A stretch of DNA of 64,000 nt from an uncultured Nitrospiraceae bacterium (GTDB taxonomy: Bacteria > Nitrospirota > Thermodesulfovibrionia > Thermodesulfovibrionales > UBA6898). Location: assembly GCA_963811165.1 (NCBI GenBank), contig CAWEQH010000010.1:672001-736000 (forward strand), in the 5' to 3' direction. Below, piece after piece: positions 30,072 through 43,443 of this stretch. A program made the translations under genes and the position numbers. Under the pieces are notes generated by a model. It had not been told where the DNA came from, searched no databases, and was given only the letters and a program-made list of their open reading frames with translations. Numbering within the stretch: the first letter of the stretch is position 1; the number at the start of each line of letters is the position of its first letter.

Positions 30072-31944
30072 CTAACCGCCCGCGGCCTTCAGCTCGCCGA
30101 GTTTTTCCTCAAACTCCCGCGCTTTTTTCCCAAGCTCCCCGGTAAGGGTTTCGAGTTCCTCAAAGAGAACATCTATCGTCCCTTTTGCCTCGTGGACCGA
30201 CTTCGAAAGCCTCCTTATGGATTCGCCGTCTCCTTTTACCGAGGCCTCAACGAGTGCCTGCGTCTCCTTTGTAACGGTATCTTCGAGTTGGATGATCGCC
30301 TGCTCCACCTCATCGATCCTCGCCTGGAGCGGTCCGATAGTCCTTGAGCGGCCGTTGATCAGTTCGGCCTTTATTCTTCTTAGGTCCTTTCTGTTTATCC
30401 CGCTGTCTTTTCCGTTCGGCCCGGACCTTTTTGGAGCGGCCTCTTCTTCCTCGTCCTTCCATCCCTGCCTGTCGAGAAAGTCCTGGTAACTCCCCTCGAA
30501 CGCCTCCACCTTGCCGTCGTCGAAGACCACAAGCCTGGTTGCCAGGGCATGCAGGATCATCTCGCTGTGGGTGACGATCACCACTGCACCGTCGAATGCA
30601 TCTATCGCCTCAAGAAGCGAATCGATCGACTCCATATCAAGATGGTTGGTCGGTTCGTCGAGCAAAAGAAGATTGGCGGGACTCACAAGGAGTTTGGCAA
30701 GAAGCACCCGGCTCTTTTCTCCCCCCGAAAGCACGCCCACTTTTTTAAGGGCGTTGTCTCCTTCGAACATCATCGTCCCGCAGATCGTCCTTGCGGCCTT
30801 GCGGTTATAATCAGGATGCGCGTCCAGGACCTCTGATTCGACCGTCTTTGCCGGATCGAGCCGTTGGATGTTCGTCTGTCCGAAATAGGCCGGCAGGGAC
30901 CTTGGATGTCTTGCTACGGCACCCTTGAGCGGCTGCAGTTCGCCCGCCAGGAGGTTCAGAAGAGTCGTCTTGCCCCTGCCGTTTTTCCCGATCACGGCTA
31001 TCCGGTCCCTTTTCCCGATCTTTAGGTCCAGGCCGCCTATCAGCGGGGGACCGGAGGGGTCAAAGGAAAAAGAGACGCCCTCTGCCTCGATAAGATATTT
31101 GCCCGTAAACGGGGCGGCCGTAAACGCGAAGTCGAGGTCCTTTATCTCCGACATCCTGTCGAGTCTTTCCTTCTTTTGGAGGGCCTTTATCTTCGACTGG
31201 ACCGCCCGCGCCCTCGTTGCCTGCGCCCTGAAGCGGTTTATAAACTGCTCGATGTCTTTTCTCTTCTTTTCCTCATTGACCCTGGTCTGTTCATAGACCT
31301 CCTCCTCCATCAGGATCTGCTGATAGAGCTTGTCGGTCGGCCCGGCGATCTTCCGTATAGCCGGTGCGATGGATGCCCATGGTATGAGTTGTGACACCGT
31401 CCATAAAGTCCCTGTCGTGGGTGATCAGGATCATCTCTCCCTTCCAGGACCTCAGGAACCTGGTGAGCCAGCGTATCGAGACCACGTCGAGGTAGTTGGT
31501 AGGCTCGTCGAGGAGGAGCAGGTTCGGCTCCGACACCAGCAGTTTCGCCAGGTTCAGCCGCACCTGGTAGCCCCCTGAGAGGTCAAGCGGACTGCGGGAG
31601 AAGTCCTCGCCTGAAAACCCGAGCCCCATCAAGATGGTCTCGACTTTGTAAGATTCGTCCCTTCCGTCTTCGAAGGACCTCAGTCCAAGACACCCCTCTT
31701 TCAGGACAGAGTTCTCTGTAAAATTCAGATGCTGTGAGAGATACCCGATCGTATAGTTGTTCGGAATACCGATGACCCCGGAATCCGGTTTCTCAAGGCC
31801 CGTTATCATCCTAAAGAGGGTCGTCTTGCCGTGGCCGTTCCTGCCGACCAGACCGATCCGCTCGCCGGCATTGACCGTAAAGCCGATATCGTCGAAGATG
31901 ACCTGGGTGCCATAGGACTTAGAGAGGTTGCTTACCTGTATCAT
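30072..31944 (-). CDS. ABC-F family ATP-binding protein with one frameshift near 31360
   Basis: First ABC domain ([22 protein letters not shown]) in 31291-31944 and second ([17 protein letters not shown]) in 30072-31397; the span is 3n+1. Confidence 0.85.
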
Positions 31945-33642: not shown

Positions 33643-34938
33643 TCACGAACTTTCCTTTAAAAGGGCATCGAGCGGACTCATAGGGACATTTTGAATATCA
33701 CGCAGCACATGGGTATAGATCATCGTAGTCTCTAAGCTCTTATGGCCGAGAAGGTCCTGGATCTCCCTGATGTTGACACCCTTCATAAGCAGGTGAGTTG
33801 CAAAACTGTGCCTCAAGGTATGGACCGTCGCGTGTTTGACAATGCCAGCCTTCTTCACTGCTGTACCTATGGCATCCTGGATGCCCTTGTCGCTAATGTG
33901 GTGGCGTCTGACCTTGCCGCTTCGCGGGTCGACCGAGAGTTTAGCAGAAGGGAAAACATATTGCCATTTCCATTCTTTAGCCGCATTGGGAAATTTTCTT
34001 GCGAGCGCACTTGGAAGATAGACTTCACCGTGTCCAGCTGCCAGGTCTTTATCGTGCAGAGTTTTCGCCCTCGGAAGATGGAGTCGGAGCGGCTCCTTGA
34101 CAGCCTCTGAAAGAATGGTCGATCTGTCCTTGTCTCCCTTGCCGTTTCGGACAACGAGCAGGCCTCCATCGAAGTCGATATCCAGCACCCTCAATCTGGC
34201 GAGTTCCATGACGCGCAGGCCCGAGCCGTACAAGAGCTGTGCAATCAACAGCGACGTACCTGATAAGTGATGGAAGAGCGCTTTCACTTCTTCGATAGAC
34301 AGCACCACAGGTAGTTTTTTCCCTCGCTTGGCCCAGACCATGCCTGAAATATCGCCGAGGTCCCGTCCGAGCACGTCGCGGAAAAGAAACACAAGGGCAC
34401 AAAGCGCCTGATTCTGTGTTGAAGACGAAACCTGTTTACTGATTGCAAGATGGCTCAGGAAATTCTGAACGGCTTCCGGTGTAATAGCCGCGGCAGGGTT
34501 GTCACTTGCGGTCTCCCGCATATATGCGAAGAACCGCTCCGCCCAGTCAAGATAAGAAAGTTCGGTATTGTAGGCAAAGTGTTTGAGTCTAATCAACCGC
34601 TTCATCTCTGCAAGGAGCTTAGGTCTTTCAGAAAGTCGGCCTTCCGGCCTCTCTTTTCCAGACAATGCCTTCAACTTTTCGCCGCCTTTAAAATGGCTAA
34701 GATAGAGGCGCACAGCCTCCCCCGCCTGGCGGACCTGCCAGTCATGGATGTCCTCCTTGGCTTTGAGGGAGTCCAGAAACTCGGCAACTGTAAGATCGAT
34801 ATCTTGTTGTCCCTTCCTGTTGCTGAAAGCAAGGAACTTGCTGGCCCAGATTGCCAGAAAAAGGACGTGTTTTTCGGGAGCTAATTTGTGCGAAAGAAGA
34901 AATTCTTGAAACTCAGGCAAGATCCCGTTGCCGATCAT
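33643..34938 (-). CDS. intI: Integron integrase (tyrosine recombinase) with N-terminal extension
   Basis: [33 protein letters not shown]; IntI-specific insert [24 protein letters not shown]; divergent from an attC array. Confidence 0.95.
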
Positions 34939-35088: not shown

Positions 35089-35120
35089 AAAGGGGAACTT
35101 CGTATAGTAATATGTTAAGC
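35089..35120 (+). other. Putative attI site; crossover core GTTAAGC at 35114-35120
   Basis: The core is the exact complement of the first attC inverse core GCTTAAC (35678); located between intI and the first cassette. Confidence 0.75.
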
Positions 35121-35677: not shown

Positions 35678-35765
35678 GCTTAACAAGAAAATCGAGGCGA
35701 CAGGGACTAACCTCGTTGGGTTTTCAGGGTATGGTTGCCCCTGCGCCTCATTTGGGTCGTTGTGT
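35678..35765 (+). repeat. attC site 1
   Basis: GCTTAAC...AAT(C)GAGGCG(A)CAGGG / CCCTGCGCCTCATT...GTTGTGT; the unpaired C and A correspond to the extrahelical G and T of the bottom strand. Confidence 0.9.
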
Positions 35766-35803
35766 GCAAATAAATTCAAAATATTAACCAGGAGACATAA
35801 TTG

Positions 35804-36211
35804 ATGGCAACAATTGCAATCATTATTAATGTAATACTTGGGTTACTCATACTCGGGTTACAAATTTGGATGAATATTAAGCTCAGATTTGCTAAGACAC
35901 AAGCAGAGGCAACAGCCCATGCCAAGAATCTTCTTTCAACTCTTGGTTTTGCCTTAATGAACTGCATTATTATTTTTATCTTATTTCGCGAATTTACTTC
36001 GGCTGCTCCACTTGATAGAAAATCATTATATTTCATAATTTCGTTCTCCCTTACCCTTTTCGCCATCTGGTTTTTATGGCTTCTAAAACCAATGTTATTG
36101 CTTCTCGGTGATCTAGTAACTCTCCATAAATTACATATTTCGGAATCTCATGGCACCACCGAAAAAGGAATAAAGACCACACAACACCAGCATCAAGCAG
36201 ACGGGGAATAA
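35804..36211 (+). CDS. Cassette 2 membrane protein (reads into attC2)
   Basis: AGGAG RBS; about 3 TM segments. Confidence 0.7.
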   Translation: MATIAIIINVILGLLILGLQIWMNIKLRFAKTQAEATAHAKNLLSTLGFALMNCIIIFILFREFTSAAPLDRKSLYFIISFSLTLFAIWFLWLLKPMLLLLGDLVTLHKLHISESHGTTEKGIKTTQHQHQADGE

Positions 36212-36269
36212 TGCCTTTTCTTTTTTCATTCATCGTTCTTCCCCCCGCTGCTTATGCTCATCGTTAAGC
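36179..36269 (+). repeat. attC site 2
   Basis: ACACAAC...CAT(C)AAGCAG(A)CGGGG / CCCCGCTGCTTATG...GTTAAGC. Confidence 0.9.
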
Positions 36270-36279
36270 CCAAAATATA

Positions 36280-36591
36280 ATGATCGAAGAATTATATAAA
36301 GAACATCTCAAGAGGAAATTTCCTGCCGGGTATGGCGGCGAGGAAGTCCTAGGCATTGATCTCGCACTGCTTGATGGAGACACTGCTGGGTGCATCCAAA
36401 CATTTATTATCCAAAAGAAAAATAACAACAATTTGGATACTAGGCGCACAGCAATTCTTGGCCTTTGCTACAGAGACCTTACAGTGGTAGTTCGAGAACT
36501 AACTGGAGAGGCAAAAGAACATTTCAATGCACTTGAAACAATGGCTCGACTAACTCTTGAGGCAATAATAAGTGCAGAACAAAAGGCTTAA
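36280..36591 (+). CDS. Cassette 3 hypothetical soluble protein
   Basis: 103 aa; stop TAA lies within the inverse core GCTTAAC. Confidence 0.75.
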   Translation: MIEELYKEHLKRKFPAGYGGEEVLGIDLALLDGDTAGCIQTFIIQKKNNNNLDTRRTAILGLCYRDLTVVVRELTGEAKEHFNALETMARLTLEAIISAEQKA

Positions 36592-36675
36592 CACGCGGCT
36601 CGATCCGACCGGGATTAAGCCCGCTCGGTTTTCGCAAAGGCTGGTTGCCCCGGCGGCTCAGCCATTTCGTTAAAC
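36586..36675 (+). repeat. attC site 3
   Basis: GCTTAAC...GGCT(C)GATCCG(A)CCGGG / CCCGGCGGCTCAGCC...GTTAAAC. Confidence 0.88.
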
Positions 36676-36704
36676 GGTAATAATAAAATAGAAAATAATA
36701 ATTC

Positions 36705-36953
36705 ATGATTCGTTATCTTGTAATCAGTTTGATTGTCTTGGCTGCTGTCGGCATACTTTTAATTACTTATGTCCAGACAAGAATAATTAAACAGCATGGA
36801 ATACGGCATTTTCAAAAAAGAGGTTTCATGAATGTTTATTGGAATGACCGAACAAAAACAGAAAGATGGTGCTTCTGGGTTGGGTTGGTACTCGCTTCGT
36901 TAATTTTTATAGTTGCGTTCACAGTTGGCATATGGCAAAAATTAAACGTTTAA
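36705..36953 (+). CDS. Cassette 4 small two-TM protein
   Basis: 82 aa; stop lies in the inverse core GTTTAAC. Confidence 0.72.
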   Translation: MIRYLVISLIVLAAVGILLITYVQTRIIKQHGIRHFQKRGFMNVYWNDRTKTERWCFWVGLVLASLIFIVAFTVGIWQKLNV

Positions 36954-37038
36954 CACGCGCATCGAGGCGACAGGGCATTAACTGTCGGTTTTTTTTCATT
37001 AATTATATTTGCCCTGCCCCTCATGCTTTTCGTTGTGG
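36948..37038 (+). repeat. attC site 4
   Basis: GTTTAAC...GCAT(C)GAGGCG(A)CAGGGCA / TGCCCTGCCCCTCATGC...GTTGTGG. Confidence 0.88.
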
Positions 37039-37048
37039 CGCAATATAA

Positions 37049-37438
37049 ATGAAAAAACAAATAATAATATTAAGCCTAATTAGCGCTCTCTTTGTCGTAT
37101 TTGCGCTCATGACACTTTCTACATTTTTCTGGGCAAAACTGAATTGGAGGATCATATTCCATGTCGTGGTCTTTTCAATGTTCTCGCTATCCGTCGCAGT
37201 TGGGCTGCTCAAACGCTACCAATGGGCTCGCTGGCTTGCAGTGGCTTCAATGACTATTGGCATTGCAAATTCTATGGTCGGTGGGTATAAGGATATTCAA
37301 CTCATGTCGGCTCATTATCCCGATGTACCCATTTTCGTATTTTGGCTCGTCGGCGCACCGCTGTGGGCTGTTATTGGTTTATCGATATGGTGGCTCGCAA
37401 AGCCTTCAACTAAAGCATTATTCATCAGTAAAGGATGA
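37049..37438 (+). CDS. Cassette 5 four-TM membrane protein
   Basis: 129 aa, hydrophobic, GLLKRYQWARW motif. Confidence 0.75.
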   Translation: MKKQIIILSLISALFVVFALMTLSTFFWAKLNWRIIFHVVVFSMFSLSVAVGLLKRYQWARWLAVASMTIGIANSMVGGYKDIQLMSAHYPDVPIFVFWLVGAPLWAVIGLSIWWLAKPSTKALFISKG

Positions 37439-37583
37439 AATCGCACGACAAAAAAACGAGGCCACGACAGCAACCGATATTAACAGCCAAGTTAAAGGCA
37501 ATATAACGACGAAGGATATCGAAGCCAACGGCAATTAAAGGCAAGGCACACGGCAATGAAAACAAAGGCAAATATGAAGGCAG

Positions 37584-37674
37584 CCACAACAATTTGCTCC
37601 AGGCGACGCGGGAATAACGGTGGTTCTTTTTTGGTTATCGCTGGTTGCCCCGCGCCCTGAGCATAACGTTCTGC
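37584..37674 (+). repeat. attC site 5
   Basis: CCACAAC...TGCT(C)CAGGCG(A)CGCGGG / CCCGCGCCCTGAGCA...GTTCTGC. Confidence 0.88.
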
Positions 37675-37684
37675 GATAACGCCG

Positions 37685-37819
37685 TCACCGTGATAGCCCT
37701 GTCAATATGAACATCCCTGCGAGAAATGGGGCCGCTGCCGATGCGCCGAATAAAAAGGCATATAAAACGGCAAATGCCAGACATGCTAACCAACAGGCTC
37801 CTCTTATATCTTTGGTCAT
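37685..37819 (-). CDS. Cassette 6 antisense-oriented hydrophobic peptide (44 aa)
   Basis: AAGGAGG RBS; MTKDIRGACWLACLAFAVLYAFLFGASAAAPFLAGMFILTGLSR fits entirely inside the cassette. Confidence 0.6.
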   Translation of the reverse strand: MTKDIRGACWLACLAFAVLYAFLFGASAAAPFLAGMFILTGLSR

Positions 37820-37852
37820 CTTACCTCCTTAAAATGAAGAAATTTAGAGGCC

Positions 37853-37941
37853 GCAGAACAATAAAATCGAAGCGACAGGGCATAACCCTGCCGGTTTTCA
37901 ATTCTATTGCTGTTCATGCCCCGCGCCTCATTTTGAGCGTT
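37853..37941 (+). repeat. attC site 6, interrupted by an IS right after its GTT
   Basis: GCAGAAC...AAAAT(C)GAAGCG(A)CAGGGCAT / ATGCCCCGCGCCTCATTTT...GTT; the core resumes as GTTGTAC at 39752. Confidence 0.85.
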
Positions 37942-39751
37942 GAAGCTGTAGAAAAAGTCAAAAAAGGCTGGAAGAACGCCATTCTGATTTGATAAGATGC
38001 TAGGAGACGGGTTAGCAAGGAGGGAGAGAGAGTGGCGAGATACAAAGAATACGACTATTCACAGGGGAAATTCATACCGATACAATTTGACAAGCAGATA
38101 CTACCGGGGACGTTTGAGCATACCCTTCATTATCTAATCGACAACGAAATAGACCTTTCGATCTTTGATGCGAGATACCAAAACGACGAGACCGGGGCGC
38201 CGGCCTACGATCCGGCGATACTGCTGAAGATAATACTGTATGCCTATTCCAGGGGGATCACCTCAAGCCGGAAGATAGCGCAGTGCTGTGAGGAGAACAT
38301 AATCTTCATGGCGTTGTCGGCAGACACAAGGCCGCATTTCACAACCATAGCGGACTTCATCTCATCGGTAGACCAGGAGATCATAAAACTATTTCTTCAA
38401 GTCCTGTCTGACGTGCGATGCAATGGGGCTGATAGGCAAAGAGATGTTTGCGGTGGACGGCTGCAAGATGCCCTCGAATGCCTCGAAGGAGTGGAGCGGG
38501 ACAAAAGAAGAGCTGCAGGCACAAAAAGAGAAGATGGAGAAGGCGATCCGGCAGATAATCGGAAGGCATCGGGAAATGGATGCGAAGGAGAAAGACAAAG
38601 GGATCATCGAGCAGGAAGAGAAATACGTTGAGACGATGAAAAAGAAGGTAAAGAAGATAAAGGAGTGGCTTGAGGACAACGACGACAAGCCCGGCAAGAG
38701 AGGCAAGCCGATAAAGAGCAACATCACGGACAACGAAAGCGCCAAGATAAAGACCTCGCATGGGGTGATACAGGGATATAACGGAGTGGCGGTGGTGGAT
38801 GACAAACACCAGGTGATAGTGCATGCGGAGGCCTTCGGGGCGGCGCAGGAGCATGATCTTTTAGAGCCGATGATAGAGGGGACGAAGGAGAACTTTGAAG
38901 AGATCGGAGAGGAAGACGTATTTGAGAAAGCAAAGCTTGTAGCCGACAGCGGATATCATACCGAGAAGAATATGCAGATGGTAATGGAAGAAGGGATAGA
39001 CGCATACATAGCGGACACACAGTTTCGGAAGAGAGACCCGAGGTTTGCGGATGTGGATAAATACAAAGAGCGATCCAGGAAAGAACAAAGAGAATTCAAC
39101 GGGACGAAGATGTTATACCGAGCCGAAGGACTTCACGCATCACAGAGGACAAGAAGTTTTGCATCTGTCCTGCGGGGAAGAGACTATATTGTAAAGGCGG
39201 CAATGTGATTATCAACGGATACAAGGCGATGAAGTTCCACGGGCGAAAGACGGACTGCCGGGTTTGTGAAGCAAGGGCAAAGTGTCTTAAATATCCGGAC
39301 ACGAACCGAAGCCCGTCAGGTGTGCTTTTTTCAGGGGCAGGAGACGAGACAGAGCGGACAACGTTTACCGAAAGGATGAAACAAAAGATAGATTCGATAA
39401 AAGGCAGACTCATCTATAACCGAAGACTCGGAACAGCCGAGCCTCCCTTTGCCCATATCAGTCAATACTGGGATTGGATAGATTTACCTTCAGAGGAAAA
39501 CGAAAGGTGAATACCCAATGGCTGCTCTACTGTATTACGCACAATCTCATAAAAGTGCATCGATATGCAGAAGGGTTTGCATAGAAAGAAAAAAAGGAAG
39601 GGCGATGCCTCAGTGAAAGGGCTGTAAAAGAGGATTTAACAACCCCCGTCGATCCAGAACAGCATTAACGGAGAATAAACCGGCAGCTTCAATCGGAGAA
39701 ATACAAAAGAAGATGATGAGGAATCAAAAACAGACTTATTTCTACAGACTC
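37942..39751 (+). mobile_element. IS1182-family insertion sequence (1810 bp)
   Basis: Imperfect IRs GAAGCTGTAGAAAAAGTC / GACTTATTTCTACAGACTC; GTT duplicated on both sides; transposase inside. Confidence 0.85.
38032..39584 (+). pseudogene. IS1182-family DDE transposase with several frameshifts
   Basis: GAPAYDPAILLKIILYAYSRGITSSRKI, FAVDG.K..SNAS, QGYN, VADSGY, AEPPF and W.LYCITHNL spread over different frames. Confidence 0.85.
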
Positions 39752-39844
39752 GTTGTACCAAGAAATTAAATGAAATCAAAGACGGCTTTGTCGTCATAAT
39801 CCCGTATCGTCTATAGCAGACGGATGGAAAAAAGGAGGAAGGAA

Positions 39845-40486
39845 ATGGGTAAGTGGGGAAACAATAGGCCTAAGATCGGTTTAATTGTTTTGGCATTTGT
39901 ATTGCCAATTTTTACAGGGTGCGCGTTCTCCGTTGATCGAATAGACCTTTCGTACGATGCGCAGCAGAACGTACAAAAAATGGCCGGAGTTGACAATATC
40001 TCAATAGAAGTAAATGTAAAAGATGTGCGGACGCAGACGGACAGAGTGAGTTCCAAGGGGGTTGCCAACCAAGCAGCTGCGATAATTTCCAACCAGGACG
40101 TATCCAAGCTTGTCAAAGAGGCTATAGAACGAGAGCTGGCGCAACGGGGGTATATGGTTTCACCCGGTCATGTCATCATTATGTGCGACCTGAGCAACTT
40201 CTGGGCGAAGTGGGAGATGGGGTTCTGGGCAGGCAAAGCACACGGGTCTTGTCAGTTTATGGTTAAAGTTCTTGACCAAAAAAGAACGCTCATTTTCTCG
40301 GATATCATCAGTGGAGAATCCACGAAAGATGGCATCCAACTTACGTCAGGCGATAATGCAAAGGAAGTGCTTGAACTTGCTTTAAAAGATGCGATGAAGA
40401 AGCTTTTTCAGACACAAGATTTTTTTGACGCCATAGCTAAAGCGGCTGGCAAAGAGCGAATGGCAAAGTCTGACATAAAAGAATGA
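39845..40486 (+). CDS. Cassette 7 lipoprotein, YajG-like
   Basis: Lipobox FTGC; V.VKDVR...VSSK...ELAQRG. Confidence 0.7.
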   Translation: MGKWGNNRPKIGLIVLAFVLPIFTGCAFSVDRIDLSYDAQQNVQKMAGVDNISIEVNVKDVRTQTDRVSSKGVANQAAAIISNQDVSKLVKEAIERELAQRGYMVSPGHVIIMCDLSNFWAKWEMGFWAGKAHGSCQFMVKVLDQKRTLIFSDIISGESTKDGIQLTSGDNAKEVLELALKDAMKKLFQTQDFFDAIAKAAGKERMAKSDIKE

Positions 40487-40562
40487 AAAGGTGAAAGCGC
40501 GGGGCTGATTATTGATAGCGACAGCGGAATAGAGACAACGCCCTGATAAAAAAACAAGAGGC

Positions 40563-40657
40563 GTACAACAAGCGCATCGAGAGGGACGCGGGAATAGCCG
40601 TCATTCTTTTTCATTCTGGCGTGGTTGCTCCCGCGCTCCTCATGCTTGTCGTTGTGG
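40563..40657 (+). repeat. attC site 7
   Basis: GTACAAC (complement of GTTGTAC at 39752)...GCAT(C)GAG..CGCGGGA / TCCCGCG..CTCATGC...GTTGTGG. Confidence 0.88.
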
Positions 40658-40718
40658 CGAATATATATAAATAATCTCTGTCAATACGTTATAATTTGGT
40701 CATAGCGGAGGTAAAAAT

Positions 40719-40931
40719 ATGAATACAGAATTTACTGCAATAATGAAACAGGCTGGAGAATGGTGGATCGGCTGGATTGAGGAAATTCCAGGCGTAAACT
40801 GTCAGGAGCGAACCCGCGAAGATTTAATTGAAACCCTTCGTATTACACTTAAAGAAGCACTCGAATTTAACCGTCAAGATGCTATCGCCGCCGTAGGCTC
40901 AGGATACACAGAAGAAAAAATTGCAGTATGA
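40719..40931 (+). CDS. hicB: HicB-family antitoxin (short), cassette 8
   Basis: WWIGWIEEIPGVNCQERTREDL RNase H-like HicB pattern. Confidence 0.85.
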   Translation: MNTEFTAIMKQAGEWWIGWIEEIPGVNCQERTREDLIETLRITLKEALEFNRQDAIAAVGSGYTEEKIAV

Positions 40932-41116
40932 AACGCAGTGACCTGTTGAAATATCTGCGGGCACAAGGCTGTGAATTTATCAGAGAAGGTAGCCGACACT
41001 CTTGGTGGGGGAACCCAAGTCAAAATAAGAGATCATCTGTCCCAAGGCATAATGAAATTGATGATCATCTTGCACGAAAGATCTGTAAAGATCTCGGAAT
41101 AAAACAAATAAACTAA
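40928..41116 (+). CDS. hicA: HicA-family toxin, cassette 8
   Basis: MKRSDLLKYL..QGC...REGSRH...VPRHNEID...ICKDLGI. Confidence 0.9.
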   Translation: MKRSDLLKYLRAQGCEFIREGSRHSWWGNPSQNKRSSVPRHNEIDDHLARKICKDLGIKQIN

Positions 41117-41117
41117 G

Positions 41118-41209
41118 CCACAACAATTTGCTCCAGGCGACGCTGTGATTAGCCGCTTTTTCGTTTTCATCTTTTGTCGACCCAGCGCGCCTGAGCACGG
41201 TCGTTACCC
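41118..41209 (+). repeat. attC site 8
   Basis: CCACAAC...TGCT(C)CAGGCG(A)CGCTG / CAGCGCGCCTGAGCA...GTTACCC. Confidence 0.88.
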
Positions 41210-41274
41210 TTAGAAATATAGAAAAATGATAATGTATAATGCAGCCAAAGGGTAATTTAACAAAAGGAGTACAC

Positions 41275-41475
41275 ATGTCAAAGGTTGAAGAAATTAAAGA
41301 AGCCATTGACTCATTGCCGGAGCAGGAATATGTCGAGTTGCGGCGTTGGTTATCCGAAAAGGACTGGGCAAAATGGGACCAGCAAATTGCTGAGCATTCC
41401 GATTCGGGAAAACTGGATTTTTTAATCACAGAAGCAAAAGAAGCAAAATCAAATAATAAACTTCGGGAACTTTAA
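41275..41475 (+). CDS. Putative antitoxin, cassette 9 (paralog of 33167-33367)
   Basis: MSKVEEIKEAI..L...WDQQIAEH..SGKLD; AAGGAG RBS; TGTATAAT upstream. Confidence 0.75.
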   Translation: MSKVEEIKEAIDSLPEQEYVELRRWLSEKDWAKWDQQIAEHSDSGKLDFLITEAKEAKSNNKLREL

Positions 41476-41567
41476 TTGCACCGTTCGACAGATCGCTTCT
41501 GGGAATGTTTCGACCGGCTGCCCGACCCAGTTCAAAAAACGGTAAAACAGCCTTTTTCTATAGACTC
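41476..41567 (+). pseudogene. Truncated RelE/ParE-like toxin ending in an IS1182 right-end scar
   Basis: MHRSTDRFWECFDRLPDPVQK then AAAACAGCCTTTTTCTATAGACTC|GTT, similar to the IS end at 39727-39751. Confidence 0.7.
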
Positions 41568-41660
41568 GTTATGTCCAAATAAAATAATGAAAATAATATC
41601 ACTGCGTCGCTTTGTGGTATCATATTTTCAGGTGCCACAGAAACAAATCGAGGTGAAGAA

Positions 41661-41858
41661 ATGAAGACAAAATTAAAGATGATTTACTGGAAGGGTGAGA
41701 AATTTTGGGTGGGGAAATTACTGGATCATCCTGAAATAATGACTCAAGGCGAAACACTAGAAGAACTCGAAGAAAATATGAAAGAAGCCTACATGCTTAT
41801 GACAATGGATGATGTTCCGCCGAAACATAAGATCAAGGAAGTTATTCTCTCGGTTTGA
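41661..41858 (+). CDS. hicB: HicB-family antitoxin (short), cassette 10
   Basis: PEIMTQGETLEELEENMKEAY. Confidence 0.87.
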   Translation: MKTKLKMIYWKGEKFWVGKLLDHPEIMTQGETLEELEENMKEAYMLMTMDDVPPKHKIKEVILSV

Positions 41859-42055
41859 AGAGAAAAATATTAATTAGAAAGCTCACCACTGCAGGTTGTG
41901 TTTTATTGCGGCATGGTCAGCGTCACGATCTCTATCTCAATCCGAAAACTGGCAAAAAGCAGCCTGTACCACGCCATAACGAAATCGACGAAAATCTTTC
42001 ACGGCATATAATCAGAGAATTGACAGAACAAATTGCTCAACCAGACTCGCAATAA
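41855..42055 (+). CDS. hicA: HicA-family toxin, cassette 10
   Basis: GCVLLRHGQRHDLYLNP...PVPRHNEI. Confidence 0.9.
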   Translation: MKRKILIRKLTTAGCVLLRHGQRHDLYLNPKTGKKQPVPRHNEIDENLSRHIIRELTEQIAQPDSQ

Positions 42056-42113
42056 ACGCGGTTTGGTTTTCATTGTTAGTCTCTGCGCTCGCTGGTTAGC
42101 ACGGTCGTTATCT
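42023..42113 (+). repeat. attC site after cassette 10
   Basis: ACAGAAC...TGCT(C)AACCAG(A) / CTGGTTAGCA...GTTATCT. Confidence 0.82.
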
Positions 42114-42186
42114 GCAAAATAATATTTGATAAATACATATCAATGAGACATACTAATACAGATATATTATATTGATAGGAGAATTT

Positions 42187-42384
42187 ATGAAGACTACACT
42201 CAACATAGAAGGCAAATTACTTGAAAGAGCATCAAAGTTGACGGGAATTAAGGAAAAGACATCTCTTGTCAGGCTTGGACTTGAAGCCCTTATCGCAAAG
42301 GAAAGCGGCAAGAGACTTGCAAAACTCGGAGGCACTGAAAAGAAATTAGACGTGATACCCCGCAGAAGATCGGCAGGCGCATAA
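42187..42384 (+). CDS. vapB: VapB-family antitoxin, cassette 11
   Basis: MKTTLNI...LL..A..LTG..EKT.LV..GL.ALI RHH pattern; precedes a PIN gene. Confidence 0.85.
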   Translation: MKTTLNIEGKLLERASKLTGIKEKTSLVRLGLEALIAKESGKRLAKLGGTEKKLDVIPRRRSAGA

Positions 42385-42385
42385 G

Positions 42386-42760
42386 ATGGTTCTTGTTGAC
42401 ACTTCGGTATGGGTCGAACATTTCCGATCCGGCAACATCGGACTTGAAAACCTGTTGAATGAAGGCGATGTTGCTTGTCATCAATTCATCACCGGTGAAC
42501 TCGCATGCGGTAATCTTTCAAACAGAGCTGAAATTCTGTCTCTGTTGCGGGCGCTACCTCTGGCAAACCATGCCGAACACGAGGAGGTAATGCAATTTAT
42601 CGAGAACTATAAACTAATGGGAAAAGGGTTGGGGTACGTTGATATGCATTTGATCGCTTCGGCTGTATTGTCTGGAGTCCCAATCTGGACACTCGACAAG
42701 AAACTCAAAGATGTTTCCTCAAAACTGGGTTTAGACTACCAACAAACGACGGGCAGATAA
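42386..42760 (+). CDS. vapC: VapC PIN-domain toxin, cassette 11
   Basis: VLVDTSVWV, GELACG, GLGYVDMHL, IWTLDKKL. Confidence 0.9.
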   Translation: MVLVDTSVWVEHFRSGNIGLENLLNEGDVACHQFITGELACGNLSNRAEILSLLRALPLANHAEHEEVMQFIENYKLMGKGLGYVDMHLIASAVLSGVPIWTLDKKLKDVSSKLGLDYQQTTGR

Positions 42761-42843
42761 CACCGCTTTCAACCAGACGCGGAATAAGCCTGGTTCGTTT
42801 TCGATAAAGGCGGTTGCCGCGCTGGTTAAAGCCATCGTTCTGT
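42755..42843 (+). repeat. attC site after cassette 11
   Basis: AGATAAC...GCTTT(C)AACCAG(A)CGCGG / CCGCGCTGGTTAAAGC...GTTCTGT. Confidence 0.9.
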
Positions 42844-42844
42844 G

Positions 42845-43330
42845 ATGATTAATAAAATAATAAAGACAATATCGGCAGTCATCGGCATTGCCTTAGTCGC
42901 TGCGATTGCATTTGCGGAAGCGTCCGAAAAGAGAGATAACGATTTGAAAGTATATCCACTTCTTACTACGACAATGGACAGTCCGTCTTTCGTAGTTGAA
43001 TATACAAATCACGAAGGTAGGAAAGTGTATCTGCCTGAAATGCTCAAAAAAGAAATAATCATACTCGATGGTCAAGAATATACAAGAAAAGTACTCGCAT
43101 TCGGGGGCATTGCCTTCTTGGAACCCGGGGCAGAATGGAAACACACCGTTGATATAAATGAATTTCTTTTCAACTCTGAAAGGCAAAAATATAGTCCTAC
43201 ACTGGGCCGCTGGCGTTGGCAAAGCCTCTTAAAATCCGGAAAACATACATTGGTTGTCAAATTCGCAGGAAAGGAATCTCCGCTGATAGAATTTGAATGG
43301 GATAACAGCATCCCTTTTTTGTATAAATAA
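42845..43330 (+). CDS. Cassette 12 secreted protein, unknown function
   Basis: Signal peptide ending AFA; beta-rich body. Confidence 0.72.
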   Translation: MINKIIKTISAVIGIALVAAIAFAEASEKRDNDLKVYPLLTTTMDSPSFVVEYTNHEGRKVYLPEMLKKEIIILDGQEYTRKVLAFGGIAFLEPGAEWKHTVDINEFLFNSERQKYSPTLGRWRWQSLLKSGKHTLVVKFAGKESPLIEFEWDNSIPFLYK

Positions 43331-43355
43331 AGCATTTTATTGTGAAAGAAAGACC

Positions 43356-43443
43356 ACAGAACAAATGACTCAACCAGATGGCGAATAAGCTCGGCGTATT
43401 TCGCAAAGGTGGCTGCCGCCACTGGTCAGCCATTTCGTCCGGG
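43356..43443 (+). repeat. Last attC site (R' reads GTC rather than GTT)
   Basis: ACAGAAC...ACCAG(A)TGGCG / CGCCACTGGT...GTCCGGG. Confidence 0.78.

Follow-up and report, generated by a model that had tools for sequence, protein, structure and literature searches.

Homing of insertion sequences (ISs) to the attC sites of integron cassettes is reportedly known for the IS1111-attC group from Tetu & Holmes 2008 and Post & Hall 2009. Within an attC site, as set out in passages of PMC2727003, R'' and R' boxes of the form AAC-GTT are combined with pairing L''/L' boxes and extrahelical bases over 57-142 nt, and the integron integrase IntI cuts within the R' triplet, the sole conserved part besides the AAC. 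Excerpts of PMC11187229 describe a DEDD transposase, subterminal inverted repeats (IRs), a circular intermediate and a seekRNA guide for IS1111 elements, of which ISKpn4 and ISPst6 belong to the attC group. Group IIC-attC introns, according to part of PMC8876359, are retroelements that home to attC at R'', splitting a gene from its own attC. In the IS1182 family, the staphylococcal IS1272 and TnSha1 enter stem-loop targets without a consensus and in both orientations (passages of PMC4923244 and PMC5678879), with IS1272 deleting part of the stem-loop and leaving no duplication.

Here, a frameshifted IS1182-family copy, lying between two GTT triplets at an attC crossover point in a window of 64,000 nucleotides (the whole stretch of DNA examined) from an uncultured Nitrospiraceae bacterium, was analysed together with its relatives. 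The copy belongs to a widespread attC-homing IS1182 lineage, convergent with the IS1111-attC group and the group IIC-attC introns. Like the IS1111-attC elements it targets integron attC, and sequence comparison suggests that the lineage works as that group does, by specific attC insertion, without belonging to it: a DDE transposase, terminal IRs and a 3-bp duplication replace the IS1111 features described in those excerpts, and no IS110-type match was found for the window transposase pieces or the relatives in Pfam or NCBIfam. With the group IIC-attC introns it shares the homing of a mobile element to attC; in contrast to the introns as described in that part of PMC8876359, it lies at R' rather than R'' and leaves gene and attC together, and no RT domain was detected in the window element with Pfam. 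Common to this lineage and the IS1182 family with IS1272 are a DDE transposase passing NF033551, terminal IRs and palindromic or hairpin targets. Unlike IS1272, in so far as the excerpts describe it, the lineage makes a 3-bp duplication at a fixed attC triplet in one main orientation. No attC-targeting IS1182 element was described in the titles, abstract openings and passages of the literature searched, where an unnoticed database or supplement entry is possible; nothing on IS1182 at attC appears in the parts seen of PMC9137128, 10.1101/2024.06.02.596822 and 10.1101/2025.07.22.666184, nor is it described in those of PMC3971601, PMC7923331 and PMC3053210. Within these sources, attC homing is in print only for unrelated mobile elements.

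The array behind the integrase gene contains eleven attC sites (Table 1). The target, attC6, has the AAC-GTT, the L''/L' pairing and the extrahelical bases of an attC, with a hairpin score of 11.6 and 47.3 bits from a covariance model whose training set did not include it. Its canonical fold has an energy of -14.2 kcal/mol against a minimum of -16.3 kcal/mol, so that the lowest-energy fold is non-canonical. The original prediction had placed the IS exactly at the crossover GTT of attC6, with GTT on both sides, a sequence behind the right IR complementary to the next cassette's inverse core, and intact genes in the neighbouring cassettes. Each of these points was borne out by the coordinates: the complement is exact, and the cassette genes on either side are uncut. 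When the IS was deleted in silico, attC6 was rejoined to a core that pairs with the next cassette's inverse core. Such pairing is exact in 9 of the 10 other two-boundary cassettes from attI onward and covers 6 of 7 bases in the tenth, so the register of the junction is not due to chance.

Table 1. Coordinates of the features discussed (window positions unless a contig or locus is named)
Feature	Position	Strand	Remarks
ABC-F-like gene	30072-31944		split into two overlapping ORFs; possible assembly indel
intI integron integrase	33643-34938	-	TIGR02249, 398.6 bits against a cut-off of 265
attI core GTTAAGC, array start	35114-35120	+	complement of first cassette R'' GCTTAAC; presumed attI from its position
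attC1-attC5	35678-35765, 36179-36269, 36586-36675, 36948-37038, 37584-37674	+	cassettes between (span 35678-37674) without IS
attC6, IS target	37853-37941	+	R'' GCAGAAC, L''/L' boxes, two extrahelical bases, R' GTT
Left GTT	37939-37941	+	IntI crossover triplet; one copy of the 3-bp duplication
IS at attC6	37942-39751	+	1810 bp, IS1182 family, 18/19-bp terminal IRs
Left terminal IR	37942-37959	+	GTT plus IR start gives GTTGAAG, 6/7 of the GTTRRRY core
IS1182-family DDE transposase gene	38032-39584	+	frameshifted at at least three places; DUF772, DDE_Tnp_1, DDE_Tnp_1_6 (Pfam)
Right terminal IR	39733-39751	-	19 bp
Right GTT plus GTAC	39752-39758	+	core of the downstream cassette before insertion; complementary to GTACAAC at 40563
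Downstream cassette	39824-40657	+	lipoprotein gene 39824-40486 (PF03923) and attC7 40563-40657
attC8-attC11, rest of array (41118-43443)	41118-41209, 42023-42113, 42755-42843, 43356-43443	+	array total 35678-43443
Right-end remnant of a second, sibling IS	41543-41570	+	adjoins GTT (41568) opening the next cassette; attC of the preceding cassette missing
Left-end remnant	C4:685810		immediately follows a solo attC
Derivatives of about 160-590 bp, miniature or internally deleted	L127 (7-165, 1126-1284), L352 (384-541), L355 (338-495), L358 (301-460), L069 (5637-5854), L351, L357		ends as in full elements; located at attC or in stacks next to full elements

IS1182-family elements consist of terminal IRs around a single transposase gene, over about 1.3-2 kb; the relatives of the window copy mostly measured about 1.76-1.87 kb. 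When compared with the intact relative P0001, the window transposase aligned as four segments of 69-91% identity in changing frames; it is therefore frameshifted, a feature that the original prediction did not mention, and an intact, active transposase could not be read from this copy. The frameshifts may stem either from mutation or from assembly indels, and the split ABC-F-like gene nearby suggests that assembly indels are possible in this region. Because the window copy was scanned as pieces against Pfam, family-model scores were taken from the intact relatives P0001, P0013 and P0120 (277-281 bits against a cut-off of 270, NF033551). Residues D142, D305 and E468, invariant across 36 proteins, probably form the DDE catalytic triad, and the nearest fold was that of Tn5 transposase (E 4e-4, TM about 0.35). 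Family model (in the intact relatives), triad with RNase H-type fold, and terminal IRs with a single transposase gene all agree with the IS1182 family. None of 30 clusters looked up carried an ISfinder-style name. A promoter scan gave 4 sites against 2.0 ± 1.5 expected, none of them leading out of the right end of the IS.

To characterize the insertion sites of relatives, two scans were carried out, of which the best 80 of 381 and the best 80 of 535 matching stretches were retained, giving 156 loci at 51-88% identity whose ends were located by searching for the IR motif. A generic IR finder was dropped, having been misled by outer repeats in the genome G101. Among these best-match loci, the left flank ended in GTT in 139 of 142 cases and the right flank began with GTT in 135 of 142, counts that do not represent independent events, as many loci are several copies per genome plus kin. 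Both ends were available for 128 loci: 121 were GTT/GTT, one was TTT/TTT (L153), one ATT/ATT (L072), and five had a mismatch on the right. In the kin of this genome, a set overlapping the 156 loci, GTT was present at 18/18 left and 14/14 right ends. The class of G360, counted over 24 loci at 42-74% identity (excluding unpublished genomes, two fragments that lack ends, and the G360 copy), gave 14/14 left and 17/17 right ends. The same GTT/attC arrangement could be seen for a copy at 45% identity in Pseudoalteromonas piscicida (NZ_CP074588.1), and overall it persists at 44-88% protein identity across many phyla; four loci came from viral contigs.

Orientation was nearly uniform, with the left end towards attC and the transposase read along the array, and no right flank among the 142 began with AAC. 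One clade member at 45% identity (L281) was found in reverse at the R' GTT of a Vibrio-type attC, with its right end near 1720 and its left end off the contig. With its first bases, the IS rebuilt GTTRRRN behind attC in 139 of 142 cases and the full GTTRRRY in 51 of 142. At one attC, two copies were stacked in tandem as attC-GTT-IS-GTT-IS (L257/L087), and miniatures of about 160 bp were present at attC in L127, L352 and L355. No IS directly behind attI was seen among the intI-bearing loci examined (by position; L031 in full). L165 and L167 have one attC and related IS copies with different downstream cassettes, representing either independent insertions or recombination between IS copies.

As proposed with the original prediction, the flanks of these homologues were searched for attC hairpins ending in GTT. 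A gapped, AAC-anchored detector was used, with thresholds chosen after the data had been viewed. Among the 126 distinct left flanks with 110 or more bases, 57 reached a score of at least 8, compared with 38 of 1560 random GTTs, 7 of 1008 shuffles and 6 of 129 mirror flanks; the window attCs all reached it (11/11). This detector replaced a first attC score (55/126 at 10.5 or more, against about 2% of controls) and a rigid version with 5/6 spacers (33/126), which had missed attC5 of the window. Apart from L136, L127 and L069, which were left out of the grouping, the 126 flanks were divided into 61 scoring at least 7, 41 weaker ones and 21 of a nested lineage described below. The L'-box word T[GTC]A was present at attC spacing in 59/61 hairpin sites, 33/41 weaker sites and 0/21 nested sites, against a background of 13% of 6175; 8 of the 41 weaker sites did not have even this motif. 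Without the AAC requirement, the hairpin search returned 11/41 weaker sites against 22/205 controls, weakly above control. A covariance model trained on the ten IS-free window attCs independently matched many IS junctions. Of the additional ends from three genomes, all 13 left ends at GTT carried the L' motif (one being L037 again), and two further left ends were non-GTT. In the left flanks of L083 and L094, the attC appears to bear an intron end at R'' as well as the IS at R', and we take this intron 5' end to be that of a group IIC-attC intron.

In the genome of the window copy, the IR motif occurred four times without mismatch, at the two ends of the window element and in two remnants (Table 1), the right-end one at window position 41567, and both remnants adjoin cassette-junction GTTs. 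A left-part fragment without its IR was present on contig C1. The genome contains 87,628 GTT triplets, 2093 YGTTR sites with an L'-like motif and 22 attC matches, and both left ends are located at attC. The 41.5-kb remnant has the same IR variant as the left-end remnant on contig C4, and one rearranged copy may be the source of both. The two-gene cassette at 41203-41570 is shortened by the right-end remnant; the start of its second gene appears to resemble RelE/ParE toxins.

A different target was used by a nested lineage. G101, the Nitrospirota genome of L048, had 21 left ends, and the 20 copies read were identical at 1809-1811 of 1811 bases. For nineteen of these 20, the insertion point is the GTT of an RCGTTR loop; the arms of the stem below it co-vary, and the hairpin is part of dispersed repeats that have long outer inverted repeats. 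A metagenome copy, L139, uses the same loop target and forms one nested branch with G101 (SH-aLRT 100), so that, of 21 nested-lineage copies, 20 occupy a repeat other than attC, with the GTT retained. The original prediction, that a DDE IS1182 lineage targets the R' GTT of attC, is thus strongly supported as the dominant behaviour of the relatives and does not hold as an exclusive one, because the nested lineage uses a different hairpin repeat; the counter-case it had named, copies at sites unrelated to attC or GTT, was encountered in this one lineage (G101 and L139), although the GTT was kept. In G101, 45 matches were empty, and there was no intI match at integrase level. Its two attCs were both empty, which is uninformative at a repeat occupancy of about 30%. 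The target repeat was counted 33 times in G101, against 0-1 per genome in four genomes where the element uses attC; it is nearly missing from those four, and their copies had no choice. The transposases of G101 and L139 differ from the clade at one conserved column (other sister pairs, 1-16), and no clear specificity residues emerged from comparing the nested lineage with the clade. A switch of target and a broad specificity would both account for the nested lineage and are inseparable on the present sequences. The repeat family measures about 170-200 bp, some members having 9-bp flanking duplications or forming inverted pairs (G101; L048-L064, L075, L088, L187-L216; L139), and IS200-like elements stand beside some repeat copies (L058, L190). 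A tetranucleotide with a hairpin and a flanking RAYT gene are the signature of REP/REPIN sequences; the G101 repeat has a G(T/C)AG-like word, a stem of 5-9 bp and inverted pairs, and 19 Y1 transposase matches were obtained.

For comparison, 30 IS1182 control loci from the same phylum were examined, of which 4 fell within the clade and 26 outside it (21-29% identity or no match). About 18 of the 26 had readable ends, eight being flanked by CTAG and three lying in hairpin loops with 2-3-bp repeats; GTT on both sides was found in none of these. A sister at 37% identity (L283) has the same IRs and a TCCA duplication in a small palindrome. The clade was separated with an SH-aLRT of 100 and attC users at its base, in a tree of 97 rows built by a quick method with SH-aLRT support only and long-branch warnings for the outgroups and L225. 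The named plasmid elements ISPpu20, ISPa7 and ISPa22 were 25-26% identical. Other IS1182 lineages (L230, L231, L232, L283) lie in short-palindrome loops with 2-4-bp duplications.

Taken together, the DDE transposase of this lineage probably selects the GTT at the attC 3' end, duplicating it through a staggered cut of 3 bp. The pairs TTT/TTT and ATT/ATT, in which both flanks match, speak for a genuine 3-bp duplication of the target, as a carried GTT core would not give them, and with the invariant triad and the Tn5-like fold they suggest a staggered DDE cut. Both strands would be attacked at R' in duplex form, with neither IntI nor a guide RNA needed. IntI was not needed in G101, where the burst occurred in a genome with no intI match. 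In a sequence test of 19 elements, no signs of a guide RNA were found: the non-coding ends were unconserved beyond the IRs, no consistent fold emerged (z-scores from +3.1 to -2.0), and the words that end and target had in common were only 4-9 bases long, a length expected by chance, apart from one tandem copy. These same observations, with the matched pairs, the 21-copy burst, the DDE residues and the Tn5-like fold, make it very unlikely that IntI inserts a circle which brings a GTT core with it, or that site-specific recombination guided by IntI or an RNA does so, without target duplication, even though a G^TT exchange would also yield GTT/GTT and the miniature L358, with TTT on its left and GTT on its right, has the pattern expected from a carried core. 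Still less credible is insertion at any YGTT with survival solely at harmless cassette junctions. Junction insertions do disrupt no gene, and a few sites (8/41) lack any attC feature; however, many other GTTs are available in intergenic DNA, one orientation is used almost always (no AAC among 142 right flanks, with L281, outside that set, as the one exception), the recent G101 burst went to one repeat in 19 of 20 cases, and copies stack on one triplet.

The enzyme would read YGTT(A) together with the attC side, that is, the L' box at a fixed spacing and probably the hairpin or cruciform tendency as well; the tandem stacking places the target determinants on the attC side. A reading of the linear sequence alone (YGTTA plus the upstream L'-box pattern), with the hairpin incidental, would explain why 33 of 41 sites without a full hairpin retain T[GTC]A at attC spacing, and is compatible with the non-canonical lowest-energy fold of attC6 and with the duplex DNA at R' that a simple triplet duplication requires. 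We consider it rather unlikely: so short a motif occurs 2093 times in the genome against 22 attCs, and still the two left ends there are both at attC; none of the 21 nested-lineage sites has the motif, and that lineage sits in a stem with co-varying arms; and other IS1182 members target stem-loops without a sequence consensus (passages of PMC4923244 and PMC5678879). The enzyme of the nested lineage would likewise read YGTT(A), here placed in the loop of a different hairpin repeat, and it has been considered whether these elements are general transposons for a hairpin with YGTT(A), attC being merely the commonest such site and the G101-type repeat open to any copy. The single differing column of the G101 and L139 transposases, no more than between other sister pairs, the 33 repeats in G101 against 0-1 in the four attC-user genomes, and the palindrome used by L283 fit this explanation. 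It is nevertheless doubtful, as attC has its GTT at the base of the stem and the G101 repeat in the loop, the two repeat users form a single branch (SH-aLRT 100), and both G101 attCs are empty, uninformative as this is at the repeat occupancy there. Returning to duplication of the attC triplet by the lineage's own transposase, a wider account can be offered tentatively, at somewhat less than even likelihood: a widespread protein-only DDE transposase may recognise the attC hairpin, land on the crossover triplet, rebuild the core with its own first bases and ride cassettes through IntI shuffling, accompanied by miniature parasites, while an almost unchanged enzyme moves to another hairpin repeat when integrons are lost, which would make it a compact, retunable target reader.

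As the left end starts with GAR, the GTT and the IS end rebuild a GTTRRR core, and the attC is likely still usable. From the position of the IntI cut, IntI would be expected to excise the IS together with the downstream cassette, as the original prediction had proposed. In the genomic loci compared, no IS-plus-cassette unit recurred behind different attCs; none of the contigs listed from two low-share DNA runs spanned an IS junction, so neither an empty allele nor an excision product was seen. Besides RNA-guided IS1111 elements and group IIC introns, homing of this kind would give mobile DNA a third route to attC, independent in mechanism, and, within the literature searched, the first by a classical DDE enzyme. 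DDE ISs are rarely so tightly targeted, and the clade would offer a way to study how a structured, poorly conserved DNA site is read, with the attC users and the loop-using G101 lineage as a natural pair for comparing target reading. For integrons, IS-laden cassettes, IS-driven array deletions (as at 41.5 kb) and missed attC or cassette annotation calls would be predicted.

Two further features were noted. Clusters of attC or solo attCs lie away from the sole intI (C9:69601-70499, C10:609023-611319, C4:720289-720972, C4:739385-739462 and C1:366432-366524). Within the array, two short cassettes (37441-37580 and 37680-37820) carry small hydrophobic ORFs, apparently on the minus strand and against the direction of the array.
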